Assembly: GCA_050331735.1 (NCBI GenBank)
Contig: JBHJGN010000081.1
Location: 1 to 30,995 of the forward strand
DNA from: Cyanophyceae cyanobacterium
GTDB lineage: Bacteria; Cyanobacteriota; Cyanobacteriia; Cyanobacteriales; JBHJGN01
Reading direction: 5' to 3'
DNA: 30,995 bases
In this document: one piece after another, positions 195-17,761 of the stretch
Layout: every line of letters begins with the position of its first letter
Numbering within the stretch: position 1 is the first letter of the stretch
Notes under the pieces: model-generated
Told to the model about the DNA's origin: nothing
Database searches by the model: none
The model's input: the letters and a program-made list of their open reading frames with translations, nothing else
Translations under genes and position numbers: made by a program

Positions 195-758
195 TTAAAC
201 CTGTAAGATTTGTTTAACAGTTAGATCTAACTTTGGGAAAGTCGGTGAAGTTATCTTATCATCACCTTGGTATTCTTTTTCCTCATAGAATCCTTCTATT
301 AACTGCAATACAGTCACTTTTGCCTTGGCTGGGTCGATAATCCAATATTCAGGAATCCCCGCTACAGAGTATTCAGAACGCTTATAGCGATAGTCTATGA
401 TTGATGAGCTGTCGCTTACTATTTCTACGGCTAGTAAAGCGGGGAACTCTAAAACAGCCGATACCTCCAAATACTTTTGCATCTGCTCGCGAGCAACGAT
501 GCAGAGGTCAGGAATTCTGGCACGATTAACAGAAGTTCTAATTCCAACGGATTGCAAAACAACCCAAGGAAATTTGAGGCGATTAATTTCAGCTAATAGC
601 GCGTTGTGAAGGGAGAAGATAATCAGCGCATGACGACCTGTTGGTGGATTCATTAAAATTAGTTCTCCATGCACTAACTCATAGCAGTTATCGGTTCCGT
701 CGTCGTAACTGAGGTATTCCGCAAAAGAGAGTTTTTTATGTGTTGGAGTCGCAGGCAT
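195..758 (-). CDS. Uma2 (DUF820) family PD-(D/E)xK endonuclease
   Basis: YELVHGELI..PP, RIPDL, LAVEIVS, K..EY..AGIPEYWIIDP motifs. Confidence 0.9.
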   Translation of the reverse strand: MPATPTHKKLSFAEYLSYDDGTDNCYELVHGELILMNPPTGRHALIIFSLHNALLAEINRLKFPWVVLQSVGIRTSVNRARIPDLCIVAREQMQKYLEVSAVLEFPALLAVEIVSDSSSIIDYRYKRSEYSVAGIPEYWIIDPAKAKVTVLQLIEGFYEEKEYQGDDKITSPTFPKLDLTVKQILQV

Positions 759-979
759 GAATTAGTAAAATTGGTGTTTCAGTAAGCTGAAATACTGTTG
801 AACAGGGTATATGGCAATAAGCCGATGATCTCCTTAGTTGGTTTGGGAGTAAAACAATTTATGAGGCGAGGCGGCTATACTACTGTTTGGTTCCTGAATT
901 GTAGCAAATCAGCTAAGCCATCTTGAATCTATCTGGCTGCTTGTTGTTGCTGTTTTGAGGTGATCGCATAAATCATCGC

Positions 980-1702
980 TTATCTCAACCAATTGGCATA
1001 AGCACTGACATCGATCATAGGCACTGTAGCAAACAACTGAAGCTGTGCAATTAGCTCAAGAAGGAAAGCTGTAGCAGACTTGCCTCCGTCGTCAAGCGTA
1101 TATTTGCCGTCCTCTCGAAGAATAAATGTTCCATGAGTTGCTATGCAGCCCATGTTTAACTTTTTTTGTTTATCATCTGTTTTTAACGAGTTTAGCAGCG
1201 AACTTCCTAATGCAGGCTTCCAATCGCTTTCGAGTGTAAGTATGCCGCCTAAAATTGGAAAAAGTTTTTTCGGTGGGTATTTTCCTCCAGCATGGGGAAT
1301 TGGTAAACTTGTTCGATGTAAAGTACGAACGCTAGCAACTTTAGCTTGTGCGTAACGTACTTCTGATGCATTGATAGATTGTTTTGCCTCGAAGACTGCA
1401 TAGACACTCTCGGCAGGAACAACAGTTTCTCCTTGATAATGAAATATAAAAGGAGAATATTGGCGATCGTGAATAACAATATCTATTTGATCGCTAAACT
1501 TGCCATTACTGTCAACAACATGTGCTTTGGTAGCTTGATATCTACGCGGCAAATAAGTTTTGAGTAACTCAAGCCAAACGTCTTCACTTGCATCGCCCTT
1601 TGTTCCTGGATGAGCAAAGGTTCTGCGTGCTATTTCAAGACGCTGTTGTATGTCATCATGAAGACTCGCAAGTACCTGTGATAATGACCAAGAATTATTC
1701 AT
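980..1702 (-). CDS. nucC: NucC, cA3-activated DNA endonuclease (CBASS/type III effector)
   Basis: 240 aa, colinear with E. coli NucC as recalled: WSLSQ..ASLH, HPG.KGDASE, SDQIDIV..DRQYSP, PAESVYAVFEAKQ, RTSLPIPHAGG, TVPMID..AY..W; catalytic ID..EAK intact. Confidence 0.95.
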   Translation of the reverse strand: MNNSWSLSQVLASLHDDIQQRLEIARRTFAHPGTKGDASEDVWLELLKTYLPRRYQATKAHVVDSNGKFSDQIDIVIHDRQYSPFIFHYQGETVVPAESVYAVFEAKQSINASEVRYAQAKVASVRTLHRTSLPIPHAGGKYPPKKLFPILGGILTLESDWKPALGSSLLNSLKTDDKQKKLNMGCIATHGTFILREDGKYTLDDGGKSATAFLLELIAQLQLFATVPMIDVSAYANWLR

Positions 1703-2465
1703 TTAATTATCTGATTCCAATTATTTGCCGATAATGCCTTTCTCGCTTCTCTCACAATCGTATTTTTTTCTGATATGCTTATATCGTCGGATATTACATT
1801 ATTACTATTAGCAGGGTCAACAAAATAGCTATCAACAAAATAATTTTTTAGATAGGAAAATACTTTCAAAACATTGTCGGCAATATTGCTACAAGATGCA
1901 TGGCTAAGGACTTTGATAGTGACTAGCTCAAGGTAAAACGAAGGGAAGTTAATTCCTTTTTGGTCTCGCCAGAGTTTTATCAGTCGAATTTCATTAGTTC
2001 GGTTTGAGTTTCTAACAAGCGAAATATGAAGAGAAATATTTGTTTTAGTCCAGGTGTTAGCTTTGCGACGATATAAAATATGATCGTTGCCATGTTGAGA
2101 TTGACGTTTAGCAGGAATTATATCAACGTCATAGCTATTTACTTTAATGCCTACTGAAACATTCTGCTTGCGGGGTAAATATCCCGCTGCTTGAAGCTCG
2201 TCAAAAACATTGTTATATAGATCTCTAAGGTTTATCAGCATACTAGATGAGAATGAAAACAAGAGATCGATGTCTGTTCCACTACGGTTAGGTGTCCCTT
2301 TAGCAAAAGAACCACTCTGATTAACACAAATTAAATAATTCCCCGCCCATCGCCTTAGTATTGGCTCAATTACCTTCTGTACTTTAATTATGTTATGGGC
2401 GATGTACTGCTTGTATCAACTTTCTCACGCCGTAAGATGTTTCTGAGGTACTGCTCGGATGTCAT
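1699..2465 (-). pseudogene. CD-NTase (cGAS/DncV-like, OAS/CdnC-like) disrupted by a 5-bp tandem duplication
   Basis: ATG at 2465 (MTSEQYLRNILRRE); TTATG duplicated at 2388-2397 shifts frame into a stop. Removing 5 bp gives a 253-aa ORF with SGSFAKGT..GTDIDL, QNVSV, DVDIIP, SFYLEL, DPANSNN; overlaps nucC start by 4 bp. Confidence 0.88.
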
Positions 2466-2592
2466 TTAATTTCCTTTTGTCTAAAATACTAAGCTTGCTC
2501 GTTCGGCAGAAAAAAGGTTGCAATCTAAGTATCCACATTAAGCTATGGGATAATAATTGCCAAACAACTGATTTATTTCCTCCCCCGAATTA

Positions 2593-3585
2593 TTGGACAT
2601 GTTCGAGCATATTGATTGGCTATCCTACACAAATCTGGTTGAGTTGCAAACCTGTGTCCCAGCTCAAACGCCACCTCCACTTCCAGCCCCAGCGCCCAAT
2701 CCGCCGCCAGCAGAGGATGTTGAGCTGCTCAAGAGCCAATTAGAATTCCTTGAGCAGAGCCACAGACAGATTATGGAGACAATGAAACAATTTCTCGATC
2801 TGATGAGGAACATTTTCATTGTTTTAGGGTTTACTCTAGGGATTGGCGGAAGTTTGGCTGCTTTCTTCATTGGTAAAAGTTTCAAAGATTTTCAGGAGTT
2901 TTCTGCAAAAGAAGTTCAAAACACTACCCAAAGTTTCAAAGATTTTCAGGAGTTTGCAAGAAGAGATATTAACGATTTTCGAGATTTTTATCGAAGAGAG
3001 GTTCAAGAGGCTATTCAGCGAGTTCGTCAGGAAGCTGAGGCGCAAATTCCCAATCTAGTTAAAACTGAAGTGGGCGATCTAATCCGTACCGAAATAAAAA
3101 ATGTAGAGCGGACATTACGAAGAGAGGAAGTAATTGGTTCGACACTAGTTGATTATTATTTACACAATGGGACAAGCGAGCCAACAGAATTTAAACTACT
3201 ACAAACACGCAACTTTAAAAGTATACGTTTTTGCAAAAATATTGATGATTTGAGTACATCTCAGTTATCGAGGCGATCGCCTAGTGATGTCGTTATTCTG
3301 GATTTAATCAATTACACTACTGATTCAGGACAAGCTTTTGCTAGCTTGCAAGATTTGGAGGAGCGCGACACCGCCGCTCGACCGCTTATTGACGAACTCC
3401 TCAGTCGTCTGCCGGAATCAACAGTATTAATCGTATACGTCAATGTTCCACCACCGTTGAGGTACCTCAACTCAATCCCCAAGAATCGTTATGTTGTACC
3501 TGCTAACAGCCCAATTACACTCGTTGGCAATGCAGCAGATGGGGCTTACGTGGCTAGGGGTGATCGCAGATCCAGACGTGCTTGA
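2593..3585 (+). CDS. Membrane protein: Pro-rich N-terminus, one TM helix, coiled coil, C-terminal receiver/Rossmann-like domain; candidate signalling effector
   Basis: TM segment IFIVLGFTLGIGGSLAAFFIG; charged helical region; alpha/beta pattern DVVILDL..TVLIVYV..ANSPITL. Start may be ATG 2599. Function inferred. Confidence 0.6.
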   Translation: MDMFEHIDWLSYTNLVELQTCVPAQTPPPLPAPAPNPPPAEDVELLKSQLEFLEQSHRQIMETMKQFLDLMRNIFIVLGFTLGIGGSLAAFFIGKSFKDFQEFSAKEVQNTTQSFKDFQEFARRDINDFRDFYRREVQEAIQRVRQEAEAQIPNLVKTEVGDLIRTEIKNVERTLRREEVIGSTLVDYYLHNGTSEPTEFKLLQTRNFKSIRFCKNIDDLSTSQLSRRSPSDVVILDLINYTTDSGQAFASLQDLEERDTAARPLIDELLSRLPESTVLIVYVNVPPPLRYLNSIPKNRYVVPANSPITLVGNAADGAYVARGDRRSRRA

Positions 3586-3630
3586 TTTTGTTTAAGGTTT
3601 ACGAGGCGAACGTTCTTGGTAGTGCAGTAA

Positions 3631-4206
3631 TTATGATTCAACAAATTTAATGTGCTTAATACTACCATCCTCTTTTAATGATCTAATTTGTACCTTGACT
3701 GTGCCACTTTCGGGAATCTTGTCGAATTTTTTGGATTCCTTTTCCGTAAATGGAATTCCAGCAACAGAGTATGTTACTCTATGGCCTTTAGAGTGCTTTC
3801 TATATACTTGGGCTTCAATAATCTGCTCTACTTTAAATGTCTGGATACTTTTTGGCGCAACCTTGTAGTAGCGCATTAGGCGGGCAGCCCATCCCAGAAT
3901 TTGCAATACATCGAATACATCAAACTCTTCATTTCTTAAATGAGTCTTACAGGCTTTTTCGATATTGCGATAATATTCGGGAGTTTTATCACTATGCCCA
4001 ATTTGATTCCCATTTTTTACTAAAACGCTGAGAAAGTTGAAAAACTGGGTTTTAGCATTTGATAGATCGCGGTCGATTGCACTGCGAAGATAAGCAATTG
4101 TCTTTCCCAGTTCATTTACGTCTGTCTCTTCTTTGACCAGTTTGAGAGCGATCACATGGGCAATCTGCCACTGAGCACTAGTTAAGTCACTAGTTGCTTG
4201 CATCAT
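3631..4206 (-). CDS. CRISPR-operon-associated hypothetical protein (helical N-domain, possible OB/S1-like C-domain)
   Basis: Start overlaps the stop of the last RAMP gene at 4206; helical LGWAARLMRYY region followed by a basic beta-rich tail. Confidence 0.6.
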   Translation of the reverse strand: MMQATSDLTSAQWQIAHVIALKLVKEETDVNELGKTIAYLRSAIDRDLSNAKTQFFNFLSVLVKNGNQIGHSDKTPEYYRNIEKACKTHLRNEEFDVFDVLQILGWAARLMRYYKVAPKSIQTFKVEQIIEAQVYRKHSKGHRVTYSVAGIPFTEKESKKFDKIPESGTVKVQIRSLKEDGSIKHIKFVES

Positions 4207-5234
4207 TAAATATTCTCCGGTAAGGCTTTGTCAGTCGGCCACTTGAGGATTTCAGCTAATTTTTCGAGCTGCTGCTTTTCTACCAAGCTTTTATGGGCAG
4301 AGGCAATAACTCTATCTACGAACGATTTCAGCTCTTCGTCAGTCAAGCGATCGCATTCTTGAGAAAAATAGCTGCTATAGCGTTCTTTTAAATTCTGATG
4401 TTTCTCTAGAGATTTTACGCTAACCGTCATCGTGCCCATGCCGATTGGTTTGCCCCCACCAACTTTGAGCGCCATAGGATAACGAGCATCTTGACCAAGA
4501 ACAATGAGGAGTGTTCCTAGTTGTGTCTGAGATATGTTTTTAAGATGCAAAGTGGTTTTGAAAACATAATTTCTTGTTGCTATTTGAGCGTCGAGACCCT
4601 TTTCAGCTTTATTATCTACTTCAATATAATGGTGGTAAAACTTGCGACCTTTGATAGTACCTCTGTCAGGTTGAGGCTTATACAGCGAAGGGACAAAACC
4701 GATATTATCAGATGCTTGCTCTCCAACTACATCAGGAAAGGAAACGATTCCTTGCCATCCCATAGCACCAAAAACCTGGCAAGCAGGGCATACTAGCTCT
4801 TCGCTTTCTCTGTTTTTCCTTGTGACTCTACATTCTGAATATTCATCAGGAACTGTAGCCTTGGTTTTACATAAGCAACTTTTGGTGATTGCTTCGTAAG
4901 CTGAGCGAACAGCGCCTTTTAGAGAACTTCCTGGTATAAGTAGCTTCTGATTTCGATGATAAGCAGTTTTGATAAGCGGAACGTTGGCAGAAACATCGCT
5001 ACCTAGAACAATATGACCAGTTGCGACAAAAGAAGAGGTTTGAACAGTTAGATCTAAAGAGAGCTTGCCATTAATCAACTCTTCCTTGTAAGCTTCATGT
5101 CCGACGACTTTCCCTCTGTTTGTACCACTGTTAGACAAAGGGACGAAATCATAGCGCTTAGGCTCTTTATTCGTAGAATCTGTTGTGCTTGAAATCTTCT
5201 TTTTGAGCGAAGGTTTTGGCTTTTGTGGTGTCAT
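4206..5234 (-). CDS. cas7: Type III-D Cas7-group RAMP (terminal, Csm5-like position)
   Basis: IPGSSLKGAVRS, Cys cluster (CLC..C..CPAC..FG), GRKFY, G-rich loop VGGGKPIGMG. Confidence 0.85.
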   Translation of the reverse strand: MTPQKPKPSLKKKISSTTDSTNKEPKRYDFVPLSNSGTNRGKVVGHEAYKEELINGKLSLDLTVQTSSFVATGHIVLGSDVSANVPLIKTAYHRNQKLLIPGSSLKGAVRSAYEAITKSCLCKTKATVPDEYSECRVTRKNRESEELVCPACQVFGAMGWQGIVSFPDVVGEQASDNIGFVPSLYKPQPDRGTIKGRKFYHHYIEVDNKAEKGLDAQIATRNYVFKTTLHLKNISQTQLGTLLIVLGQDARYPMALKVGGGKPIGMGTMTVSVKSLEKHQNLKERYSSYFSQECDRLTDEELKSFVDRVIASAHKSLVEKQQLEKLAEILKWPTDKALPENI

Positions 5235-5239
5235 AAAAA

Positions 5240-5665
5240 TTATCGAGCAACTAAAGCAACGAAATAGACTGTGGCAGTCTGTTGATCAAAAAAGTAACGT
5301 TGACGAATATTAATGTTCTGGTATTCAAGCCTCTTCGGAAATCGAGTTTCCGTTTTAGGATAAACGCATGCTCCTTGCTCTCGAACATTCCAAGATTGCC
5401 CTACTAGCTTGAAATCAGGGAATTCTTCGCTTGCGCTGAGTAGCAAAACGCTATAGCCTTTCCCATGCTGTTTCCAGCGTAGTTCTTGTTGACTGTTAAA
5501 AACTTGACCTTCAGGACTGGGAAAATCTGTAGGCAACTCCGTGCAAAAACCACTAACTTTATGGGGCCATCTAAGAAAGAAATAGCAATTTGTGCTTTGA
5601 AGTTGATTGATTAGCGATCGCAATTCTGCGGAATCTATCACTATTTTTGTACCGACAAATGCCAT
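5240..5665 (-). CDS. csx19: Csx19-like type III-D subunit
   Basis: ~141 aa between two Cas7 genes; EGQVFN..ELRW and RQRYF motifs; ATG at 5665 couples to the upstream TAA. Confidence 0.7.
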   Translation of the reverse strand: MAFVGTKIVIDSAELRSLINQLQSTNCYFFLRWPHKVSGFCTELPTDFPSPEGQVFNSQQELRWKQHGKGYSVLLLSASEEFPDFKLVGQSWNVREQGACVYPKTETRFPKRLEYQNINIRQRYFFDQQTATVYFVALVAR

Positions 5666-6666
5666 TATGCAGCTACTCCCAACAATGCACTCCAAGATTT
5701 TACTGCTTTAATAAACAAATCCTTGACCTGTTCGTCACCCGTCCAAGTAAGCTGTACCCCAAATCCTAATTTCGTCCCCTTGGCAGCAACAGGTAAGTCA
5801 GCTTGGATATCTTTTTTTACCTTGTCATAACCATATTTTTTCTGCTCTTCTTTCTGTTGCTTATCATCTGGATTGAAGAACTGGCTAACTCCTAGCAATG
5901 TTCTTTTATCCCAAGTACGGAGACTACCTAGATGACAAATCTTATCCGTGGCTTTGTCAATGATACAGCCAGGATATTGCACTACTGCGGAGTCTAGCCT
6001 AACTTTTACTAGCCCCATGCCGCGAGATTTCGCAAATCCAATACCAAACCAACCCTCATGCAGGTCGCGCAAGACAAGTCCAATTAGCCCCAACTGCGCC
6101 AAGGTAAAATTTTTAAGGTGAATCTTGGTACGAAAGTCCCCAGACGTACAAACCTGATAGTTGAATAGAGCACCGGAAACGGCAGAGCCAAATACCCGAT
6201 CGATAGCAACTCCATTTCTTTCTTCGATTTTAAGTTTTTTAGGATCTACCGGGTAGGCATCTTCAATGCGGAAACGACTGGCGATTGCAGTGTTACCAAA
6301 TATCTGATCTGTAAAGGAAGACTCCTTGTAAAGCTCATAGGAGGGCAACTTCTTCTGCTTGTCCTTTTTATCCTTTAAATAGTTATAATCATCGTTGAGT
6401 GGATCGTTTGCCCAAATGCCTTGGTTATTCTCAGGCTTGTGATCGCTGCCTACCGTCCTAACAATACGCTCGGCATGGGCGCGTATTGCTCCTTTTAGGG
6501 AACTTCCAGGCAGGTAGATCGAACGACCATCTGCATAATACGTTTCTACAAACTCCATATCTGGCTTTGTTGGATTGGCTCCCTCTTTACCCGATTTGAT
6601 CAGAATTGGTCCATCGGGAATTAAGGTTAGCTCAATTGTGCAGTGATTAACTAAGCGTTTATGCAT
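5665..6666 (-). CDS. cas7: Type III-D Cas7-group RAMP
   Basis: YLPGSSLKGAIRAHAE, RNGVAIDR..G, IGFAKSRGMG. Confidence 0.88.
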   Translation of the reverse strand: MHKRLVNHCTIELTLIPDGPILIKSGKEGANPTKPDMEFVETYYADGRSIYLPGSSLKGAIRAHAERIVRTVGSDHKPENNQGIWANDPLNDDYNYLKDKKDKQKKLPSYELYKESSFTDQIFGNTAIASRFRIEDAYPVDPKKLKIEERNGVAIDRVFGSAVSGALFNYQVCTSGDFRTKIHLKNFTLAQLGLIGLVLRDLHEGWFGIGFAKSRGMGLVKVRLDSAVVQYPGCIIDKATDKICHLGSLRTWDKRTLLGVSQFFNPDDKQQKEEQKKYGYDKVKKDIQADLPVAAKGTKLGFGVQLTWTGDEQVKDLFIKAVKSWSALLGVAA

Positions 6667-6751
6667 AGCAGATTTAAGTTTTAAGGGACATTGCCTGCAA
6701 TTAGCTTGACAATTAGTTTGCAGTATTAGCAGTCGTTACTCTGAACCTTTC

Positions 6752-7594
6752 TTATTTTGGTTTTCTGAGTTCTTCAATGAGAGTCTCTGACCAGTCAGTC
6801 TTGTAAGTTTCATATTCTTCACTCGTTAGTAAGTAGTAATCTTTTTTGTTATTCAGCAAACGCTGAAGATACTGAATTAGCTGTTCAGGATCGCTTGCTG
6901 GATAGTCAAACCACCAGCGTTTTTCTAGCCTTAGTTTCACTACTCCTAATCCCCGCGATCGCCCGCCCCCCAAAGGAATCTGCTGAGTCTCAAACTGATG
7001 TAGTCCAATCATTAGTAAACCTAGTTCCCACTTTTCGGCATTCTCGACAATTGCATGAAAGCGAAAGGGAGTCCCAGCAGGCACTACCTGGAAATCGTAG
7101 AGTTTGCCATTTGCAGCAATTTCTGTATCCCGGTCAATGGCAACACCATCTCGCTCTTGGTATTGATTGAACCAATCATTTGAGGAAACGTTGAGGTCTT
7201 TTATTTGAAGTTTGCTTGATAGCCAAGGAGAACCAAATAATCGCGATGCCAAATCGGTTTCTGCAACAATTGCTGTAGTCAGCCGTGCGTCATCTGAATA
7301 TTCTTCCTTGAGTTCTTTCATTCTGTCCGAGGTAATCGACCACTCTTCTTCAATTGCAGGGTTAGCAACCAACTTGCGATCGCTCCCCAAAATTCCTCTT
7401 AGAAAGCTCTCTAGTCGCGCTCTCATAGCTCCCTTAAAGCTTGACCCTGGAATCAATGGTCTGCCAAAAGCATCCTTAACGACTGGCAAGTCAGAGCCAA
7501 TTGGCTCCAGCGATCGCCCTTGGCTAATCCGCAAAGCTGTCACAGTTGTCAATTTACCTACTAATTCCAGTCGATTTCTAAAAACATCAAACAT
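6752..7594 (-). CDS. csx7: Csx7/Csm3-like Cas7 RAMP
   Basis: SDLPVVKD..IPGSSFKG, RDGVAIDRDT, LGGGRSRGLG. Confidence 0.85.
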   Translation of the reverse strand: MFDVFRNRLELVGKLTTVTALRISQGRSLEPIGSDLPVVKDAFGRPLIPGSSFKGAMRARLESFLRGILGSDRKLVANPAIEEEWSITSDRMKELKEEYSDDARLTTAIVAETDLASRLFGSPWLSSKLQIKDLNVSSNDWFNQYQERDGVAIDRDTEIAANGKLYDFQVVPAGTPFRFHAIVENAEKWELGLLMIGLHQFETQQIPLGGGRSRGLGVVKLRLEKRWWFDYPASDPEQLIQYLQRLLNNKKDYYLLTSEEYETYKTDWSETLIEELRKPK

Positions 7595-7650
7595 TGTCAG
7601 TTCAGGCTCGATAATTACTGAGATTAATTTTTTTGGATTCAGAATCTTGG

Positions 7651-8100
7651 TTACTTTGCCAGGGAATTCAGGTACACAAGGCGACGTTGGCCGTATCCTA
7701 AATAAAGGCGAATAAGCCTAATCCAAATCTCATTTAAACTTTTGTGGCTTGTTTGCGTCTGGATACTTGCAGCTTGTTCCTGAATTGAACAGTCAATGTC
7801 ATCAATAATTTTTTCTGCCAGCGAACCTTCTCCTCTTCCCCATTTTTCATCACGACCAACCTGATAGCGGAGAAAGTTTTTTATCACCTCTGGACTCTCG
7901 GTTGTTTGTGCAACTCGCAGTAAGTTACGAAACTGAGACTCCTCCAGCTTTTTCTCTCCTTTATTGTAATATTTCCCCTCTTTTAGGGCTTTTTCAACCC
8001 ACTGCACCAACTTTTCCTCGACTTGAAGAATTTTCTTTTGCACAGCAAGCTCTTGCTTTTGCATTGAGTGTTCTGATTGCTGCTCCACTGTCTGACTCAT
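7651..8100 (-). CDS. csm2: Type III small subunit (Csm2/Cas11-like)
   Basis: All-helical 149 aa, SQFRNLL..NFLRYQVGR..RLYLGY, in the expected operon position. Confidence 0.75.
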   Translation of the reverse strand: MSQTVEQQSEHSMQKQELAVQKKILQVEEKLVQWVEKALKEGKYYNKGEKKLEESQFRNLLRVAQTTESPEVIKNFLRYQVGRDEKWGRGEGSLAEKIIDDIDCSIQEQAASIQTQTSHKSLNEIWIRLIRLYLGYGQRRLVYLNSLAK

Positions 8101-9350
8101 ACCGCATCCTCCCGAAAAATGAGATGAAAATCGTCACAAACTTTTATTTGACCCAACCCTTCGCTAGTGCGATCGCCCACTCCCCGCAGCTCTAGCTCAG
8201 CTAGTTTCTCATACCACCGTTCTTGCTGAGTTTCTGAAATACTAAACAGAAAGACTCCTCCCATCTTGGCGATTAGCTCAACATCTTTAGGTAGTCCCCA
8301 AGCGGTATTCCAACCAGAGCGATAATCATAGCTGCTGTAAGTCATGTGGAGTGTTACATCAGCATTGTGCAAGCCGACGAACTGACGCAGCATGTCTTCG
8401 GAAATGACCATCGTGCGCTGCCACTGCTCAGTCAAAATTGCATCAGACTGAAGATTGACTGTGAAGAAGGTTCTTCCTTCAAGAGGATTTGGGTCAGGAA
8501 CGCCAAATGCATTCCAAAAGCCCCAGCGTTCTTTTAGCTTTTCGTTAAAGCTGCCGATGCGCTGCTTTAACGAACTTTCTTGAATATTTGCACTCTCAGA
8601 GATTTTAGCTTTTATCGTAACGTTGCCAAGTCCCCGTGACCCAGACCCTCCAAGACGAAAGCGATCGCAGTTGCTACGAATAAACTCCGAAAGTTGTTCT
8701 GCTAAATCGCCGTCATCTTGAACCAAGATCGAACTTCTGTAGGTAGTAGGAACTTTCTCTTTCTTCCCCTGAACCTCGTTAAGGACTTCGATACTGTAGA
8801 GGATTTCTTCTTGAGCAGTAGCAAGCCTGCGATTGATTCCAACTCTCGTCAGCAGGCGCTTACTCACAGAATGAGAAGAGTAACAGTTTCCGGCTTTGCT
8901 GTAGAATCCACTGAAAGATTCAACCCGATCACCTTTAATATTGTTCGGCTCATAGAAAAGACCGTGCTCTCTCGCACAAAAGCTATCAATCAAAGAATCA
9001 AAGACGCCTGCCTTGTTGGGTTTAAAGCCGCTGTCAGTTTTAGAACTCAGTGCCGTTGCTGGCAAGAAAGCGATTTCGCCGTCCCTAATTTCGTACTCAT
9101 CCTCTCCAACTTTCGCGATCGCTGGATAAGCATTTTGAAAGACTGCTGCCTGTTCGTCTAAGAATAGAGCGTGAAAGTCATCTCCAGCTTTAGGTATCTG
9201 AGTAGAGGATTTTAAGATTCTGCTAGCGATCGCCCCGCGAATAACGCTTCCGGGAATGTAGTCCATTGCTTCGCTAACAGAGCCGCCTGGCTTCCGCTGT
9301 CCAATAGCCAAAGGAGCCTGAGCCGTAATTGTCAAATCAATGCGTTTCAT
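8097..9350 (-). CDS. csx10: Csx10 (Cas5-group RAMP), type III-D signature
   Basis: YIPGSVIRGA, TRVGINR, two G-rich loops (LGGSGSRGLG; GVGDRTSEGLG). Confidence 0.88.
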   Translation of the reverse strand: MKRIDLTITAQAPLAIGQRKPGGSVSEAMDYIPGSVIRGAIASRILKSSTQIPKAGDDFHALFLDEQAAVFQNAYPAIAKVGEDEYEIRDGEIAFLPATALSSKTDSGFKPNKAGVFDSLIDSFCAREHGLFYEPNNIKGDRVESFSGFYSKAGNCYSSHSVSKRLLTRVGINRRLATAQEEILYSIEVLNEVQGKKEKVPTTYRSSILVQDDGDLAEQLSEFIRSNCDRFRLGGSGSRGLGNVTIKAKISESANIQESSLKQRIGSFNEKLKERWGFWNAFGVPDPNPLEGRTFFTVNLQSDAILTEQWQRTMVISEDMLRQFVGLHNADVTLHMTYSSYDYRSGWNTAWGLPKDVELIAKMGGVFLFSISETQQERWYEKLAELELRGVGDRTSEGLGQIKVCDDFHLIFREDAV

Positions 9351-10170
9351 TACTCTTATCCTCGTTCAATATTGTTTGAGCGGAAGAGTTTGAAGATTTG
9401 CTCCTACATAGAAAAGCCCAAACTGCCTCATCAATTTCAGCATTCTCGAAGATTGAAGGTTCCCATTGCAGCCACCCCAATCCGGTAGATTTGCTACCCC
9501 CCAAAGCGTGGATATGTTTGAGTCCAGCTAAAATTAGCGCTTTGGCAAAATCAGGTTTGCCATCATCTTGCTCTTCAGTAAAATTGCACAAAGGAGGCGA
9601 AAGAAAAATCTCGCCTGCAAACCTTAGTGCAGCATTGGCTGGAGAAGTTTCTAGGAAGTAGAGCTTTTTTTCTTCAGCAGTGCGGCGGCGGCGGTTGATA
9701 GTTACACCGGGACGTAGCACTTCAGGAAGGGTATTAGGGTCTTCAGTGCAAATCAGGTCGGTAAACTGAATTCTGGACGGCAGGCTGGGATTGCCAAAAA
9801 TTTGGCAGATCAAGCAGTGATACAAAGGCAGGTTATCAGAACTGCGCTCGCCAATTGCATATTCGTCGCGCTGAAAATGTTCGGTTAATCCAACTCTATG
9901 GGGACACATAGTCTGGGCTACCGGAGATTTGCAGGTTGCCCATTCTAAGGCTCTCGTCAGTTTCTCGCATTCGTGACGCAATCTTCCTTTAATCTGTGAA
10001 GCTGGAATCGCTAAGCGTCCGTCAGCCGTTTTGAGAATTGGTTTATCAGCCTGTGAGCCAGACGACCCCCCGGCTCCTACACACAGCGCCGTATCGAGCG
10101 TGGCAACTAGTTGAATTTGGTTTGCCTGACGAGACTGTACTGACTGGTTTAAGTCTCTTAACTGAATCAT
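9337..10170 (-). CDS. csm3: Csm3-like Cas7 RAMP
   Basis: IPASQIKGRLR, C..C.IFG, RPGVTINR, LGGSKSTGLG. Confidence 0.85.
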   Translation of the reverse strand: MIQLRDLNQSVQSRQANQIQLVATLDTALCVGAGGSSGSQADKPILKTADGRLAIPASQIKGRLRHECEKLTRALEWATCKSPVAQTMCPHRVGLTEHFQRDEYAIGERSSDNLPLYHCLICQIFGNPSLPSRIQFTDLICTEDPNTLPEVLRPGVTINRRRRTAEEKKLYFLETSPANAALRFAGEIFLSPPLCNFTEEQDDGKPDFAKALILAGLKHIHALGGSKSTGLGWLQWEPSIFENAEIDEAVWAFLCRSKSSNSSAQTILNEDKSNETH

Positions 10171-12599
10171 GGCTCCTCCCGTTCTCTGGTACTCTTCGCC
10201 ACCGTGTTTTGCGAGGCATCTGCGCTCGCGCTCTCTGCTACGTCAATGAAGGGATATAAATCAACCATCTCTCGCCAGATAGTTTCATAGATCGTCTTGT
10301 CTTGGTTTTCTTTGCGAATAGCAGTTGACCAGGGAGCCAAATTGCCGTTGTTAGATTCTGCTTCACACCAGGCAGCTTCAAAATTTGTTTGCAGTAACTC
10401 CTGTTCTTTTTGACCAAGCCGAACGCGAAAATAGCGGTAGTTGAGAATAGCTGAACGCTTACCGCGTTTGAGCAGGCTACGAATTTGGTAGAGCTGAGAT
10501 CTGGGGAAACCAGATTTTTTAAGAGCTTCAACAGTCGCGATTAGTCCTTCGAGTTCGTAGAGAGTGTAGGGAGCGCCATAGAGCTTAAGTTCCTGCGGTC
10601 GCTGTGGAACCCGGACGGTTAGTCCTTCATTGCGGAAGGAAGAAATATCAGAGGAAATCATAGTGACGGCTTTGAGAACAAGAAAATCTACCGTGCCGCC
10701 GAAATAATCTTCGCTCCTTAAGTCTTTTGCTCGCTTTTTGGCTGATTTGAGCAATTGCGAAACGAGTTTATCTGCGTAGTAGATTGGGGTATTAGCCGCC
10801 GTAATTAAAACTCCGCTAGAGATGCTCAAGCAACAACCCGATTGTTTTCCAGAAGCTGGCAGATAGCGGTGATGAGCTTGCTCAGGAGCAACTTCAGCAG
10901 ACTGTTTAAGAGCGTATCGTTTCTGACTACCAGTTATTTTCTCCATCAAAATCGACTCAAATTTGAAACCAATTTTAAGAGCGACTTCCAGGGCTTTGTT
11001 CGCAGGTACAACCAGCAATACGTCGTCACCACCGATAGTAATAATTTCAAAAGGATGAATCCAGACGGGAGCTTTATTGGTACGGGACGATTTAGCATCC
11101 GGTTTGTAGTAATGAGGGGCGATGCTGTGGGCAAGAGCCCAATAGACCGACTGCTCAGTAGCCTCAAAAACATCCTGGCTGAACTCTTGATAGTGAGCGG
11201 GAGTTTTAATTTGATCGCGAATGTACTGCCCCATATTGTTGCCATCAGCGTAAATATAAGCCACAAAGCCATCGCTAGCATCTCCAATCTCGGTGAGCGA
11301 TCGCGCTTCTCGCTTGTCAGGAGCTTTAATTGTCCCATTGCCATCAACGAACAATTTATGTTCTTTGTCATAGTGCTCTACGAGTCCCTCATCGCAGAGA
11401 AATTGCTCGAACTTAGACACCCAGCTACGGAAGACCTTATCGTCGGTTGTGGGATTCCAAGATTTATTGAAGTTAGCGCTTTTGTACCATTGCTGTCGTT
11501 CTGATGCTTCTCGTTTTGCGATCTGGCCCACTCGTCGCTTTCGTGCTGTTGGCTCAGAGAGTTGTGGGGTATTGGGTAAGGTATCTGCATCCACTTTTAC
11601 TACTGCCGAACGGCGATCGCTATCATCCCGCATTAGGTAAGGATGGGTTTCAAACAGCGGTGGATAACGACGGCTAGGACGAGCTGACGAATCGTGACCG
11701 CTGCGGCGTTGGTTAAACTGACTTGCCAGCTTCCCGACAAGTTCGCTAAATCCCTTCCGCTGCTTGAAAGCTGCTTCAATCTTTTCAGCATCGTCATCCT
11801 CGCTAATTCCAAAATAAGCTTGAAAGACTGGATTGTTAGCGTACTCTTGAATCGTATCTAGCCAGATAGTTCTGCTAACTGAATCTTGTAATTTCCCCAA
11901 ATAAATTTCCAATGGGCAAAACAAATCTCTAACCGCGCAGGAATTTGCTGTCAAGGTTTCGCAAGTGTAGCGTTTCTCAATAGCATCAACTAGGTGATCA
12001 ACAAATGCGGCTGGACAAAATGCTAGAATGTTGCCTCCAGTGGAGTAGATAACTAGTTCTGGAATTAGGACATTAGAATTAGAGAAGTGCGAAAAATTGC
12101 TCTTAAGCCATTCGCGAACCTGATGGCAGTAGGCTGAAGCCTCTTGACACTGAGGAAAGCGGCCTGATGTATCGCCATGGAAGAACGCAGGAAGATCGAC
12201 AAGGTTGATTGCGTCAAGCAGAGCAGATGCACCGCGAATTTCTTGCAGATCGGCAGACTCAAACACGTAGCTTTTGATTTTAGTTGCACCGCCATAAACT
12301 AAACCAATCTTCGCCTCTTGTAGGTACGGGTAGTCTGCAACCAGTTTTTCAAGCTCTGCCTTGGTTTTAGGAGGATTAAAAGACTTATTGGAAAAGCTGA
12401 GCAACGTTTTTACCTGCGTCAAGACTTCCCGCAGTTCGAAGTCATCCGGCTCTCGATTGTTTAAAATCGCCTCCCGTAAACTTTGTAGCTTTCTAAAAGC
12501 GTCATTTAGTTCGGTGTTCCTTCCCCAGAGCAGGCACCAAGTGATCGCAATAGCTGTCTGCTTCTGAATTTTTGTCAAACTAGCTGCTGAAGAAAACAT
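10167..12599 (-). CDS. cas10: Cas10 with intact Palm2 GGDD motif and no recognisable HD nuclease domain
   Basis: KIKSYVFES..EIRGAS, YSTGGN, YIYADGNNMG, IITIGGDDVL, LLKSAK; only ~95 aa precede Palm1, with no HD motif. Confidence 0.93.
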   Translation of the reverse strand: MFSSAASLTKIQKQTAIAITWCLLWGRNTELNDAFRKLQSLREAILNNREPDDFELREVLTQVKTLLSFSNKSFNPPKTKAELEKLVADYPYLQEAKIGLVYGGATKIKSYVFESADLQEIRGASALLDAINLVDLPAFFHGDTSGRFPQCQEASAYCHQVREWLKSNFSHFSNSNVLIPELVIYSTGGNILAFCPAAFVDHLVDAIEKRYTCETLTANSCAVRDLFCPLEIYLGKLQDSVSRTIWLDTIQEYANNPVFQAYFGISEDDDAEKIEAAFKQRKGFSELVGKLASQFNQRRSGHDSSARPSRRYPPLFETHPYLMRDDSDRRSAVVKVDADTLPNTPQLSEPTARKRRVGQIAKREASERQQWYKSANFNKSWNPTTDDKVFRSWVSKFEQFLCDEGLVEHYDKEHKLFVDGNGTIKAPDKREARSLTEIGDASDGFVAYIYADGNNMGQYIRDQIKTPAHYQEFSQDVFEATEQSVYWALAHSIAPHYYKPDAKSSRTNKAPVWIHPFEIITIGGDDVLLVVPANKALEVALKIGFKFESILMEKITGSQKRYALKQSAEVAPEQAHHRYLPASGKQSGCCLSISSGVLITAANTPIYYADKLVSQLLKSAKKRAKDLRSEDYFGGTVDFLVLKAVTMISSDISSFRNEGLTVRVPQRPQELKLYGAPYTLYELEGLIATVEALKKSGFPRSQLYQIRSLLKRGKRSAILNYRYFRVRLGQKEQELLQTNFEAAWCEAESNNGNLAPWSTAIRKENQDKTIYETIWREMVDLYPFIDVAESASADASQNTVAKSTREREEP

Positions 12600-13945
12600 G
12601 TAGAAATAAACAGCAAACGTTGTAATACCATTTAGCTTGTAAAGTAGTCTATTGCCTCAGCTTAAGACTTTAATATTCCTCCTTTCCGATTAGAGACAGG
12701 AAAAATCTTAATTTTTAAACTGGCTTTCTCTTAAATCAATAGGCAACTCTTATTTAACAGTACTGTTTTTGCAAAACTCAAAAAATTTATTTTTTCTTAA
12801 CAAGAAAGTCAAGTCATGACTTTTTCTACACTTTGTTAATTTCAAAGAATGCTTTTGATATCGCCTAATGTCTAAAAACCTGTTTTTAGAGTTTTTTGAG
12901 GCTAAAACTTTATTTCAAAAATGTTTTTTGTGGGCAAAAAATATAAGAATATTGGCATTGGTTCTCTTTTGACTAGTTGCAGTGACAATTTGATAGTCAA
13001 AGTTAAAGTCATGGCAACCAGTTAACCAAGTCTCAATTTTTCACTCATTCAACAAGCTCCGTTTTTCTGCAAGGCTGACAGGTTCTTAATTTTCTGTAAC
13101 AATCAGGCTTAACCAATTGTTCTAGTTGCTAAACTTAATTGCTGCTGTTTCCCTTTCCGTACATTGTTTGTCAGCCGCGCTAAAAAATTTTCGGTCATCG
13201 AATTGTCAGCGCTCAAATATAGGAAGTTTTTACTGTCGCCTGAATAAGCATAGCTTTGGCTCTCTCGTACAGAACTCGTCCCTGCTTTGCTCGCACTATC
13301 GAAGAACCGGCCAGTACTCCAGCCATAATCTTTGATTTGGCTGGCGGTGTAGGACGCGCGACCGACAGGGAGCATACCTACAACTGATGTGATACCACGT
13401 AGGCATGCTAAATATGACATGGGAATTTAAGCTAGAACCGACCGCTGAGCAAGCATTGGAGATTGAGCGCACATTGACGGTGTGTCGCAAGGTCTGGAAT
13501 TTTGCCTTGCGCGAGCGGAAGGATTGGCTTAATTCTCGCAAGTGCCTGATAAACGCCTGTTCATTACATTCTGAGTACATCTTGTCTGCTGATGAGCCAT
13601 TCCCCGGCTATCACCGGCAGGCTAAAGCGTTGACAGTTGCCAAAAGGGAAATTCCTGAATTGAAGTCTGTTAACGCGCAGATGTTACAACAGGTGCTTAG
13701 AAAGCTTGATATTGCTTGGGAAGGGTGGCGCTTAAAGCGATCGGGACTACCTAGGTTTAAGAATTAAGCCAGGATGCGTAGCTTTGTATTTCCTCAGATG
13801 CTGAAGAACTGCATTTCTGAGGAAGGGATCAAGCTTCCTCAACTTGGCTGGTTAAAGGTTCGCTGGTCTCGCGAGATTCCAGACATTTTCAAAGTCAAGC
13901 AAGCTCGCATTGTTCGCTCAGCATCTGGCTACTTTGTCATGCTTA

Positions 13946-15151
13946 TACCATTTCTGAGAAAGGTTGCACTGGTTAGAGGTGCTGCGTAGCAGCCAAAAGA
14001 TAAGACCATCCAGCTAGAGAGCGAAGCCCTGTTTCCGTTAAAGAGTTCACAACTTGAAAAACACGTTGTCGCAGAGCTGGTAAAGAGGAAAAATTTTGGT
14101 CTTTGAACAACTTTTTGAGGACTTGCCAAACGCGCTCAATCGGGTTGAGTTCGGGAGAGTGAGAAGGTTGGAAAATCGGCACAACGTTGTCTGGCCAGGT
14201 AAAGGTCGTAGCAATATGGGCACTAGCTTGGTCAGGGACTGAGCCGGAATCGATTCCGGCTCACAAGCCCTGACCTGCCTTCCGCAGGTCAAGGTGGAGT
14301 AGATTGAGGGGATCTGGAAACGCGGCTCCAAACAGCTCCACAAAACGCCCGAAGCAAGCCGCATCCAGGTGGGAAAAGCTATCGAAAAAATGCTCTCCCG
14401 TCGCCGGTTCCACCGCCCCATACACCCAAAAATTGTCTCGCTGCCACTGTACAGGCATTGTTGGTTTGACTCCTTTGAGCGTAATCCGTCGTCAAGCGCA
14501 AAGTCTTCAGTCCAAAACGGCTTTCGTCTTGGCAGAAGTAACGCACTCGACGACCGGCTCCAAAATGCTCGACCATCACCGCAATCACGTCTGGCAGTTT
14601 TTTTTAAACTGGTCTTGCACCTTTGGGTTTGCCTCACTGCTGCGCGGTCGAGACGCTTTGAGTTTGGCTTTCAGTCGGTATCGCACTGTCGCGTGTACTG
14701 TTGAATAGGCCGTCTCTAGTTGATGCTCTTCGGCTAGCCACTCTTGAATTTCTTCGTAGCTGCCAAACCCGCTTCGCCTTTTGAGCTGCTTTTTGAGGTC
14801 TTTTAGGGCTTCTCCACTGATCTTCGCCGGACGACCTGGACTAGTTTTGACTGCTAGGAGTCCTTTTAGTCCTTGTTTTTGGTACTTTTTGAACCAGCGA
14901 TAGATGGTTGATTCGGCACAGCCTAACATCTCGGCTAGTTGCCTTCTACTCTCTACTTTTCCAGTTCTCTGTAGGTACAAGGCTCTCAAGCGGTCCCGCT
15001 TTTTCGCCTGGTTTTGTGTCCTGATTAGTTCAATGAGTTCTTCTGCGCTTTCTTTGACCTCAACGTCATAAACACTTGCCATTCTTTCTCTCTTTGAGTT
15101 CCTCCTTGTCTTAGCTTACCTAACCTAGTGCTTTCTTTTCAAGAAATGGTA
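13946..15151 (-). mobile_element. IS630-family insertion sequence (defective)
   Basis: ~31-bp imperfect TIRs TACCATTTC..GGTTAG / CTAACC..GAAATGGTA, TTA on both flanks; HTH ORF 14585-15082, A8 slippery run at 14598-14605, DDE motifs QDESRFG, LHLD, SPELNPIERVW; extra frameshift near 14495 and an insertion at 14234-14290. Confidence 0.93.
14234..14290. repeat. 57-bp hairpin insertion (copy A) in the IS630 transposase
   Basis: Removal restores LHLD-QASAH; GGTC duplicated; contains perfect 24-bp palindrome TGAGCCGGAATCGATTCCGGCTCA and hairpin GACCTGC-CTTCC-GCAGGTC. Confidence 0.85.
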
Positions 15152-15223
15152 TTAGCTTAGAGGCTGATATCAGTATCCCTGACGTGCCGTATCACGGGCA
15201 TAGTATCGGGATTGATGTCGGAC

Positions 15224-15280
15224 CGCTCCTCGTGCCGGAACTCGGCTCCGGCACTCAGATGGGCGGTCGCCTTCCGCGAC
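15224..15280. repeat. 57-bp hairpin insertion (copy B) in tnpB
   Basis: Removal restores GIDVG-LKYFL; GAC duplicated; contains GTGCCGGA..TCCGGCAC and GTCGC-CTTCC-GCGAC. Confidence 0.85.
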
Positions 15281-16036
15281 TCAAATACTTTCTGTCTACT
15301 TCTATCGGCCTGCAAGTTAAGCGCCCTCGGTTTTTTGATGCTCTACACCGCAAGCTGAAATTGCTGCAACGTAGACTCAAGACCAAACAAAAGGGGAGCG
15401 CTAACCGAGTCAAGTTATTGAAGAAAATAGCCAGAGTGCATCAGCGGATTGCCGATACTCGTTCTGATTGGCATTTCAAACTGGCTCACCAGTTGTGTGA
15501 CAAAGCGGACACCATATTTGTCGAGGATCTGAATTTTCGGATTATGGCAAAAGGGTTTCTAGGCAAGCACACACTAGACGCTGGGCTGGGGCAGTTCTTA
15601 AATCAGGTTCTGCCGTGGGTGTGCTGGAAGCGAGATGTATTTTACGACAAAGTTGACCCTAGGCGTAGTTCTCAGGAATGCCCTGATTGCGGGGCTGAGG
15701 TACGCAAAGACCTTTCAGTCAGGATGCACCACTGCCTTGAGTGTGGGGCAGTTAAGCCGCGCGATATAGCAGCGGCACAAGTAATAAATAGCCGTGGGCA
15801 ACGGCAAATGGAAAATGCCTGTGGAGTCGAGGTGGCGGGGGTGTCGGCAACGGCATCTAGTCAACTGGCCCTGAAGCAGGAAATCTTTGGGGCGACCCAA
15901 AGAATCTCACTGCATACCGCTTAGCGGTTGCTGGGAGAGTATGTCAAATTTTGTAGATTTCGCTTCCGATGAAGAGTTTTTGTTCCCCTGCGGTGATTAT
16001 GTGTCTGAGCGGTGCTTGCCTGAGCAAATGCCCGTG

Positions 16037-16690
16037 TTAACCATCAGGAGTAGACCCTTCGACGATTAACGGTGGCTCAGTTAGGATTCCCACTAATACA
16101 CTCAGAAGTTCTTTAATGCCCTGAGGCTCTGTGTAAAAATTGATATCGCGCTCCAGTATTTTTGACTTGGGATTCAACCGGCCAAAGTGCCAAGTTTCCC
16201 CAGTGGTGACGGCTCCGTAGATAGAGATTTCTAGTTCTTCTCGCTGCTGAAAGGCTACCATTTCAGCGATTAACTGCTTGAAACCCTTTTCCGTGTCGGC
16301 TAGCTTGGCTTCGACGATTAAAATTTGGGAAGATTGGGAGCTAATGTAATAATCAACGGTTCCCTTAAGCTGGTCTGAAACAGATAGCCAATACTCGATA
16401 TTGATCTGTGGTTTAACAAGCTCGACTAAACGAAACATCAGTGGCGAGATCAGAACTTCGCGCCTAGCCGTTTCACTATCAAGATTGACGTAAGGAAGAA
16501 TATTATTAATCTGTTGCTCAATTTCAGCAGCTATTACTTCTATGCCGTTGTCATCAGAATACGGCAGCGTTAATCTCTTCCGATGCAGCGTGTAGCCGAA
16601 ATGCTCTGCAATTTCAGCGGCTGTTACTCGGAGTGAATAGTAGTCGCTGAAGGTTAGCGATGCTTTCTGGTCAATGACTGGTTTCGTCAC
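16037..16690 (-). CDS. Cyanobacterial PD-(D/E)xK-fold hypothetical protein (restriction-endonuclease-like)
   Basis: SETARRE.LI.P, GTVDY, IVEAK, QLIAEM, YGAVTTG..W.F motifs. Confidence 0.7.
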   Translation of the reverse strand: MTKPVIDQKASLTFSDYYSLRVTAAEIAEHFGYTLHRKRLTLPYSDDNGIEVIAAEIEQQINNILPYVNLDSETARREVLISPLMFRLVELVKPQINIEYWLSVSDQLKGTVDYYISSQSSQILIVEAKLADTEKGFKQLIAEMVAFQQREELEISIYGAVTTGETWHFGRLNPKSKILERDINFYTEPQGIKELLSVLVGILTEPPLIVEGSTPDG

Positions 16691-16968: not shown

Positions 16969-17249
16969 TTGAATATTCACTTGCGGGGAAGAGATTAGCG
17001 CGGAATTTAGGCTTCCTCCGATTAGAACTGCCGCATTCTTTCACATTTCCATTCCTTTGCGGGGAATAGATTAGCGCGGGTCTCTCTACTCGAACGCATA
17101 TCTGTGAGTGCGGGCATATGTTTCCATCCCCTTGCGGGGAAGAGTTTAACGCGAGTGGAACTGCCCAAAACTCCAATCTTCAGGTAGCAACCGTCCTCAG
17201 CACGGCTCTAGGGAAGTTTCCATCCCCTTGCGGGGAAGAGTTTAACGCG
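16969..17249 (-). CRISPR. CRISPR array, 4 repeats (2 degenerate) and 3 spacers, type III-like repeat
   Basis: 34-nt core CGCGTTAAACTCTTCCCCGCAAGGGGATGGAAAC (minus strand) at 17120-17153 and 17216-17249; decayed copies at 17045-17078 and 16969-17002; spacers 42, 41, 62 nt. GAAAC 3' end and decay polarity imply the minus strand. Confidence 0.9.
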
Positions 17250-17273
17250 GGGCGGGTGAAGGAGCTCACGGTA

Positions 17274-17753
17274 GCGATCGCCTTTAATCGCGGCAGTTCC
17301 GATGCCCCCAATCCCAGGTTGGTCGCTGAACTCCGGATTCTCGAAAAAGTGGCGCGAAATATCGCTGTCGGCAGCAAAACAGTCGATCAGGTCGAATATA
17401 CTGCCGTTCTGATCCGAGGAATGCCGCTCTCTTTACAAAAGTTCGCCGTTTCCCGTTCAGATGTCTTATTCCTCCTGCCGCCAGTCTATCCGCGCCTTCC
17501 TCCCATCGGCTGCTATCTTAACTATCCCTGGAAATCTGCTGGTCAAGGCGACCATCACTTTACCCAGCAAGGGTACTACGGAGCGCCATTTCTCAGCGAG
17601 GAAGGATGGTACTGGTACTGCGTCGGACTCGGCGGCGGCTTCAACCGCGACAGATGGCTAAATTCCTGGAGACCGAGCACCAACCCCAAGCAAGGACACG
17701 ACCTAGCAACGCTGTTTGTCACCGCCCGCCACGCGATTAACTCCGAAGATTAA
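17274..17753 (+). pseudogene. Prokaryotic E2/UBC-like domain, apparently 5'-truncated
   Basis: LLPPVYPRLPP, GWYWYC, WRP..HDLAT pattern of prokaryotic E2 domains; the upstream part of the called ORF is CRISPR array. Confidence 0.65.
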
Positions 17754-17761
17754 CAACTTTT

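Follow-up and report, generated by a model that had tools for sequence, protein, structure and literature searches.

A frameshifted cyclase and an intact NucC beside a type III-D CRISPR operon in a cyanobacterial genome from a stromatolite

Type III CRISPR systems and cyclic-oligonucleotide-based antiphage signalling systems (CBASS) share effectors that respond to cyclic nucleotides, and the transfer of an effector from one to the other has not yet been seen in progress. One such effector is the endonuclease NucC. PMC11229360 counts 35 type III loci with NucC, including III-D; its supplement records NucC beside III-D in Firmicutes, and the NucC list there holds no cyanobacterium. The present analysis concerns contig JBHJGN010000081.1 of a Cyanophyceae cyanobacterium (assembly GCA_050331735.1), which was studied as a whole (30,995 bases) and is called the window below. 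In it, a type III-D operon lies next to a two-gene CBASS with an intact nucC and a frameshifted cyclase gene of the CD-NTase (cGAS/DncV-like nucleotidyltransferase) type.

With the described type III loci that use NucC as an accessory nuclease (V. metoecus III-B, Serratia III-A; PMC11229360), the window shares an HD-less Cas10, here predicted to be cyclase-active, near a NucC with a pocket for cyclic triadenylate (cA3). Unlike in those loci, its NucC arrives with its own broken CD-NTase, is of the CBASS sequence type and lies outside the cas transcription unit. With the minimal two-gene (type I) CBASS, consisting of a short SMODS CD-NTase and NucC, the window shares the pair, its order and the overlapping stop and start (64/80 metagenome and three genome loci), but its cyclase is frameshifted and the cassette is inside a CRISPR locus. 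The type III CBASS of E. coli MS115-1 (CdnC-HORMA-Trip13-NucC) and P. aeruginosa (CdnD; structures 6p7o, 6q1h and 6p80) contain a close NucC (E about 1e-99 to 1e-102) and a distant cyclase (6p80, E 4e-6). In contrast to them, the window has no HORMA or Trip13, and its cyclase is about 70 residues shorter and belongs to another CD-NTase family. Finally, Cam2 (Hoikkala, Graham and White 2024, PMC11229360) has an N-terminal transmembrane (TM) helix, a C-terminal receiver (REC) fold, no visible partner kinase gene and a place in type III loci, all of which are shared by a protein encoded next to the cassette. A single TM helix and a long stalk of coiled form characterise the window's family, which is likened to Cam2 by the published description, not by sequence.

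Every part of the locus is of a known kind, and NucC in type III loci, III-D included, has already been published. What is new is that a III-D operon, a Cam2-like gene and a CBASS cassette whose cyclase is dead come together at one place, in a phylum absent from the published NucC list. The reading preferred here, with a probability of roughly 0.55, is that two independent defence modules stand side by side, the CBASS cyclase having died recently, and that their adjacency is co-location in a defence island.

The CBASS cassette, the type III-D operon and the Cam2-like gene

The cassette consists of the following features.

980..1702, minus strand: nucC, 240 residues, intact, predicted cA3-type endonuclease (PF20247, PDLC00745 and PDB matches)
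1699..2465, minus strand: short (253-residue type) CD-NTase/SMODS cyclase, a frameshifted pseudogene (frame A 2465-2388, frame B 2415-1699)
2388..2397, minus strand: 5-bp tandem duplication, CATAA twice, causing the frameshift and the TAA stop at 2388-2390

NucC has approximately the full length of its family (about 240 residues). It matches the restriction-endonuclease-like PF20247 (DUF6602) above the cut-off at E 3e-32 and PDLC00745 at E 6e-109, covering positions 2-240 of 244. It matches NucC of P. aeruginosa (6q1h) at E 6e-102 with 344 bits and that of E. coli MS115-1 (6p7o) at E 3e-99, and is more weakly matched to the CRISPR-linked NucCs of V. metoecus (6uxf, 256 bits) and Serratia (7zgv, 155 bits). 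For the E. coli protein (EcNucC), 10.1101/694703 names D73 of the active site in IDx30EAK, R53, Y81, T226 and V227 of the cyclic AAA pocket, and H136 and Y141 of the gate-loop latch. In the alignment, the active site corresponds to D74 and E105-A-K107 of the window NucC, the pocket to R54, Y82 and the TV of ATVPMID, and the latch to H137 and Y142; all catalytic and cA3-pocket residues named for EcNucC are present. This is the sole NucC in the genome. Its ATG overlaps the TGA of the cyclase gene (ATGA), and the two form one operon of a cyclase and an adjoining effector gene, as is required of a CBASS.

In frame A of the cyclase gene, ATG 2465 opens 25 codons reading MTSEQYLRNILRREKVDTSSTSPIT, which are followed by TAA at 2388-2390. 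Frame B is open from stop to stop over 2415-1699 (238 codons) and matches the PADLOC Cyclase model PDLC00803 at E 1e-66; the scores for the NCBIfam model CBASS_cyclase_a (64.8 bits, cut-off 200) and for SMODS (22.5, cut-off 26.5) are too low to pass. The GS and DxD catalytic motifs, invariant across the alignment of the family, can be read in frame B as 'SGSFAKGT' and 'DIDLL', and the earliest canonical start of this frame, TTG 2262, lies downstream of both. The relatives of the cyclase have 252-255 residues and the N-terminal pattern MT.DQYL.NIL.RE.VDT...SP[VL]I[KNR]VQ. On the minus strand the junction is GCC-CATAA-CATAA-TTAAAG, and a single CATAA copy would restore SPIIKVQ at the place where the aligned relatives have SP[VL]I[KNR]VQ. 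Since the one-copy reading fits the relatives, the lesion is taken as a 5-bp tandem duplication. In a second assembly (Logan) of the probable source run, positions 900-3700 are in a single contig at depth 49 with no gap or indel. The frameshift is not peculiar to a single assembler, which argues against assembler error, the two assemblies sharing their data and not being independent. The break looks recent because there is a single lesion and the catalytic motifs are still readable; with a break so young, the intactness of NucC says little about selection. Early termination of the cyclase probably lowers NucC translation, because the nucC start overlaps the cyclase stop.

Upstream of the cassette, nine unbroken cas genes lie on the minus strand at 12599-3631 (names from PADLOC and Pfam). 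They belong to type III-D by a Cas10 with Palm/GGDD, Csx10 as Cas5, Csx19, a III-D Cas11 and several Cas7 genes.

10167..12599, minus strand: Cas10, 810 residues, GGDD, no HD (Pfam and PADLOC profiles)
9337..10170, minus strand: Cas7/Csm3 (Pfam and PADLOC profiles)
8097..9350, minus strand: Csx10, the III-D Cas5 (PDLC01024, E 1e-118)
7651..8100, minus strand: Cas11/Csm2, the III-D small subunit (PDLC01011, E 6e-53)
6752..7594, minus strand: Cas7/Csm3 (Pfam and PADLOC profiles)
5665..6666, minus strand: Cas7/Csm3 (Pfam and PADLOC profiles)
5240..5695, minus strand: Csx19 (PDLC01391, E 7e-57)
4206..5234, minus strand: Cas7-family RAMP, Csm3/Csm5-like (Pfam and PADLOC profiles)
3631..4206, minus strand: Csx21 (PDLC01485, E 6e-63)
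2593..3585, plus strand: TM-REC protein, PADLOC Mem_02/C3a55, a Cam2-like candidate type III effector (PADLOC, E 5e-63)
16969..17249, minus strand: mini CRISPR array of the III-D repeat type, two identical and two degenerate repeats (repeat search)

The GGDD motif of Cas10 stands in the context 'ITIGGDDVLLV'. The first 100 residues contain no histidine and no HD family was matched, in agreement with the 3% of III-D Cas10s reported to have HD (PMC11229360). Because GGDD is present and HD is missing, the Palm is predicted to make cyclic oligoadenylate (cOA); this Cas10 should be a cyclase-only enzyme producing it on target RNA.

The first-pass annotation, made from the letters of the window, had described a GGDD-positive Cas10 without HD, an intact nucC co-oriented downstream of the cas operon and a frameshifted CD-NTase, and in these points it was right. 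The nucC gene shares the strand of the cas genes, but the opposite-strand TM-REC gene intervenes, leaving nucC outside the cas transcription unit. The same annotation had found no CARF, SAVED, Csx1 or Csm6 gene in the window. None of these models matched the scanned open reading frames (ORFs), yet the TM-REC protein is itself a candidate effector, so the III-D system can hardly be called effector-less. A CARF-TM gene is found beside a type III-B system on another contig of the genome.

The TM-REC gene, 127 bp from the cyclase-NucC cassette, is oriented towards the end of the cas operon (convergent) and away from the cyclase gene (divergent). Its family is small (66 matches, every named source being cyanobacterial). 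No Pfam family was found at E <= 0.001 in 50 of its members (best 0.0018), and none scored above cut-off for the window protein. A PF20299 label, carried by 30% of a neighbouring cluster in the Atlas, had a score under 0.9 and was not confirmed. An AlphaFold (AF2) model from a 50-sequence alignment (pLDDT 79) has a single hydrophobic helix, then a long stalk that is also helical, and an alpha/beta domain at the C-terminus; the hydrophobic stretch IFIVLGFTLGIGGSLAAFFIG falls within helix 38-93 of the model. Residues 177-328 align to REC domains with Z 10-12.8 (at the best Z of 12.8, root-mean-square deviation 2.8 A over 126 residues), and strand 3 ends with an Asp, D235, that does not vary in the family. 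A Foldseek search of the model against PDB gave nothing at E <= 0.001. According to PMC11229360, Cam2 combines a TM helix with a REC domain and occurs in 26 type III loci, once beside NucC and twice beside SAVED-CHAT; this co-occurrence led to the prediction that it senses cA3. A literature search gave no subsequent experimental work on Cam2.

The mini-array has a repeat whose 3' end on the minus strand is ...GGGGATGGAAAC. Since this end resembles the 37-nt repeats of two other cyanobacterial III-D loci, L129 and L130, the array at 16969-17249 is regarded as the III-D system's own, now reduced. Matches to the III-D repeat were confined to 17045-17235, with no remnants near the cyclase-nucC cassette. 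The window contains no Cas6, and when the genome was searched with the III-D Cas6, Cas1 and Cas2 of a relative, only I-D and III-B genes were matched (for Cas6, only the I-D one).

Relatives of the cassette and of its neighbours

The cyclase family gave 1358 matches at E <= 1e-5, mostly of 252-253 residues, the best being 63-64% identical. Scanning of metagenome contigs yielded 80 loci with the cyclase type of the window, 32 of them at least 8 kb long. These loci were searched by tblastn with the III-D and TM-REC proteins of the window, III-A and III-B effector proteins and a relative's Cas6, Cas1 and Cas2. A NucC homologue begins 3-21 nt after the cyclase in 64 of the 80; a NucC-like match is placed otherwise in three, and 13 have none, four of these with less than 800 nt of downstream sequence. 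The synteny of cas genes and CBASS that would be expected from the first-pass interpretation did not recur. None of the 80 loci had a match to the III-D, III-A or III-B effector proteins or to TM-REC, the lone exception to an absence of cas matches being an I-D-type Cas1-like match 0.8 kb upstream of the cyclase in one locus (L083). Among 400 other genomes of the phylum, the cyclase is present in two (41% identity, 255-residue frame), NucC overlapping it in both and no cas gene being matched. In all three genome loci with the pair (L025, L033 and L034) no CRISPR genes were found, and the pair is lacking from both related III-D loci, L129 and L130.

The GC content is 0.386 in the cyclase-NucC cassette, 0.442 in the cas operon and 0.495 in the genome. 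Judged by composition and distribution, the pair is a mobile, free-standing, low-GC minimal two-gene CBASS. One of the three genome loci, L025 (Acidobacteriaceae), has at 8995-9986 the same short cyclase divided between two overlapping ORFs; an intact NucC lies downstream, and within 10 kb there is no cas gene. By its gene arrangement this is a second case of cyclase breakage beside an intact NucC, here without CRISPR nearby.

The TM-REC family occurs in nine of the 400 other genomes, at 10 loci. Type III genes lie within 10 kb at nine of these (two III-D, six III-B-like and one III-A-like), and none were found at the tenth (L133). In L129 and L130, the genes from Cas10 to Csx21 are convergent with a TM-REC homologue, as in the window; beyond it are an array, Cas6-HTH (helix-turn-helix), Cas2, Cas1 and RT-Cas1 (RT, reverse transcriptase), and no cyclase or NucC. 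On the basis of this convergence and of the type III genes at 9/10 other loci, TM-REC is assigned to the CRISPR side. It appears to be the III-D system's own conserved accessory and is a candidate cOA-gated membrane effector. By gene order, the CBASS pair of the window occupies the place where L129 and L130 keep their array and adaptation genes. As a separate observation, L129 (22-1803) and L130 (450-1454) have an RT-Cas1 fusion (or Cas1) in addition to a second Cas1-Cas2 pair, and two arrays with the same repeat type.

A NucC tree was built from 24 genome loci and the metagenome loci. These gave 77 NucC ORFs with at least 200 aligned residues, 71 after removal of identical copies, to which the window NucC was added; it is a quick IQ-TREE tree with SH-aLRT support only. 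The NucCs that go with long cyclases (type III CBASS) fall into one supported clade (96), which lies inside those that go with the short cyclase. The window NucC is outside this clade in an unresolved group, and its five nearest rows are all short-cyclase-linked. It most likely came in with its cyclase.

Other genes of the contig and the genome

The genome was assembled from a stromatolite metagenome (5.57 Mb, 99 contigs, 99.98% complete) and is the sole member of its genus and family; a DNA search of 40 relatives gave no match. After the convergent TM-REC gene, the minus strand carries what is left of the cyclase gene (2465-1699), nucC (1702-980) and a gene of the Uma2 family (758-195), and then the contig ends. 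A scan of 700-3900 for promoters and terminators was uninformative: it gave 9 promoter-like and 2 terminator-like sites where 7.7 and 2.3, respectively, would be expected. The remaining features of note are these.

195..758, minus strand: Uma2-family PD-(D/E)xK gene, PADLOC PDC-S03 (Pfam and PADLOC match); regarded as a neighbour of the system
13405-13989 (N-terminal pieces) and 15184-15924 (C-terminal piece): TnpB/IS605 OrfB gene, split, between cas10 and the mini-array
16037-16690, minus strand: PD-(D/E)xK protein, 217 residues (PADLOC 'CRISPR-associated' family PDLC01472, E 3e-27)

The TnpB/IS605 gene (13405-15924) is split by the insertion of a second element with HTH transposase ORFs (14047-15082). 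The PDLC01472-type gene at 16037-16690 has paralogues on five further contigs and is therefore probably not specific to this locus. Near the mini-array, two ORFs (17118-18124), the first of which overlaps the CRISPR repeats, gave weak, sub-cut-off matches (Prok-E2_E at E 3e-4, Prok-JAB at E 2e-3) and could be part of a ubiquitin-like conjugation defence set.

Elsewhere in the genome, contig C26 (1-12783, locus L115) encodes a type III-B system with RT-Cas1, Cas10b, Cmr3-6 and a 277-residue CARF-TM protein (PDLC01942, E 1e-98). The Cas10b has 'YAGGDDFLG' and no His in its first 100 residues, and one of two further weak matches to the Cas10 palm in the genome proved to be this real III-B gene. 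The other, on contig C67, fitted only an SduA-type model and was dropped. Contig C93 has a type I-D system, cas4/1/2 and array included. In total, the genome has two Cas10s predicted to make cOA and at least three candidate cOA-responsive effectors.

Readings of the locus

Under the preferred reading of two independent modules, the III-D complex would bind target RNA and the Palm of its Cas10 would make cOA, which would gate the convergent Cam2-like membrane protein. The second module would be a horizontally acquired, low-GC two-gene CBASS (253-residue-type CD-NTase and NucC), presumably dead now that the 5-bp duplication stops the cyclase at codon 26, ahead of the GS and DxD motifs. NucC would still answer any cA3 in the cell, including any that Cas10 may make, so that cross-activation is possible. 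As the cyclase lesion is young, the retention of NucC needs no selection to explain it.

The nearest competitor, considerably less probable though not negligible, is a hand-over or cross-talk. In it, the III-D Cas10, perhaps together with the III-B Cas10b, would make cA3 on phage RNA and activate both NucC and the Cam2-like protein, the CBASS cyclase being dispensable and decaying on the way to a NucC owned by CRISPR. The first-pass annotation had suggested, as possibilities, capture of the CBASS effector by CRISPR or a dual-input cA3 system when the cyclase is intact; the parts are as it named them and the cross-talk is chemically reasonable, but its premise of a III-D system without an effector fails and the pair is unlinked to type III genes elsewhere. 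The kept active site, pocket and gate-loop residues of NucC and the GGDD-positive, HD-less Cas10 are as such a hand-over would demand, and experimental precedents are reported for NucC in the III-B system of V. metoecus and in the III-A system of Serratia. The published cA3 prediction for Cam2 was built on co-occurrence with NucC.

Several observations weigh against the independence of the two modules. The Cam2-like gene lies so close to the cassette (127 bp) as to fit a shared cA3 currency. In the deltaproteobacterial genome locus L016, a NucC 64.6% identical to that of the window closes a type III-A operon without a cyclase, and in L024 (Wenzhouxiangellaceae) a NucC 63% identical follows a III-D array, again with no cyclase. 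Cyclase remnants beside these two NucCs were sought by tblastn (E <= 10) and with the family hidden Markov model with filters off, and none were found. On the quick tree the L016 NucC falls inside the long-cyclase clade and that of L024 in the same group as the window NucC. The label CRISPR requires two changes there, so that CRISPR-linked NucCs arise twice within those of CBASS, and CBASS-type NucCs have, to judge by this tree, entered type III loci more than once. Because L016 and L024 arise separately within CBASS NucCs, capture of the window's type of NucC by type III loci does occur. Departures from conserved columns number 10/96 in the window cyclase, the highest among 30 sequences (0-9 in the other 29), and 2/100 in the window NucC, the median of 66 others; this asymmetry is a weak hint that selective constraint differs between the two genes, as a hand-over would have it. 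Moreover, a single locus is unable to demonstrate that an adjacency is due to chance.

Two details of these loci can be added. L016 (2240-11907) has the order Cas6-Cas10-Csm2-Csm3-Csm4-Csm5, a 101-residue ORF without a family match and NucC, with Cas2 beyond; its NucC scores 366 bits to the CBASS NucC model. In L024, the NucC ORF (about 10010-10732) has an in-frame TGA at a conserved N-terminal Trp codon, and the longest ORF with a canonical start is about 17 N-terminal residues short.

The hand-over nevertheless fares worse than two independent modules. The association with III-D is unique to the window when set against 83 other loci with this cyclase type, and neither of the two related III-D loci has the pair. 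The column asymmetry has to be set beside a single young lesion, which makes the retention of NucC uninformative, and beside the broken cyclase of L025, which neighbours an intact NucC where no CRISPR is near. The interrupted NucC frame of L024 detracts from its value as a precedent. Within the window, nucC stands behind a gene of the opposite strand, and its translational coupling to the truncated cyclase is probably lost. The III-D system that would have to drive NucC also looks poorly armed, with a vestigial array of two identical and two degenerate repeats. Insertion-sequence debris separates this array from cas10, and a III-D-type cas6, cas1 or cas2 was not found in a genome 99.98% complete.

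A stronger form of the hand-over, to which a still somewhat lower chance is given, is that the locus is an intermediate of effector capture, caught in the act. The cA3-signalling III-D system with its Cam2-like effector would in this case have begun to drive the adjacent CBASS NucC, thereby making the cyclase dispensable.

It is improbable that the frameshift was produced by the assembly, or that it is confined to a minority or a strain within the metagenome-assembled genome, the real population having an intact, working two-gene CBASS that neighbours CRISPR. The stromatolite metagenome source leaves room for this, as does a comparison by contigs, which hide minor variants, but the second assembly, at depth 49, agrees with the first and shows no indel. 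Furthermore, a 5-bp tandem duplication is a typical mutation of replication slippage and is not typical of base-calling error. Very unlikely is a reversible switch at a slippage-prone CATAA repeat, or recoding by ribosomal frameshifting, with some cyclase still made at a low level. A perfect tandem repeat could in principle revert by slippage, but there are just two copies of CATAA, and the relatives, with one, lack such a repeat. No frameshift signal of a known kind was noticed, and between the stop and the catalytic motifs there is no canonical start.

If the adjacency of the two modules is only chance, as the preferred reading has it, the locus is an ordinary defence island with a pseudogene. 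[quoted passage not shown] Should it be a capture intermediate, the locus would provide a second, independent pairing of Cam2 with NucC and speak for cA3 as what the REC domain binds. Seen alongside L016, it would then show that NucC has repeatedly passed from CBASS to type III loci along this route.

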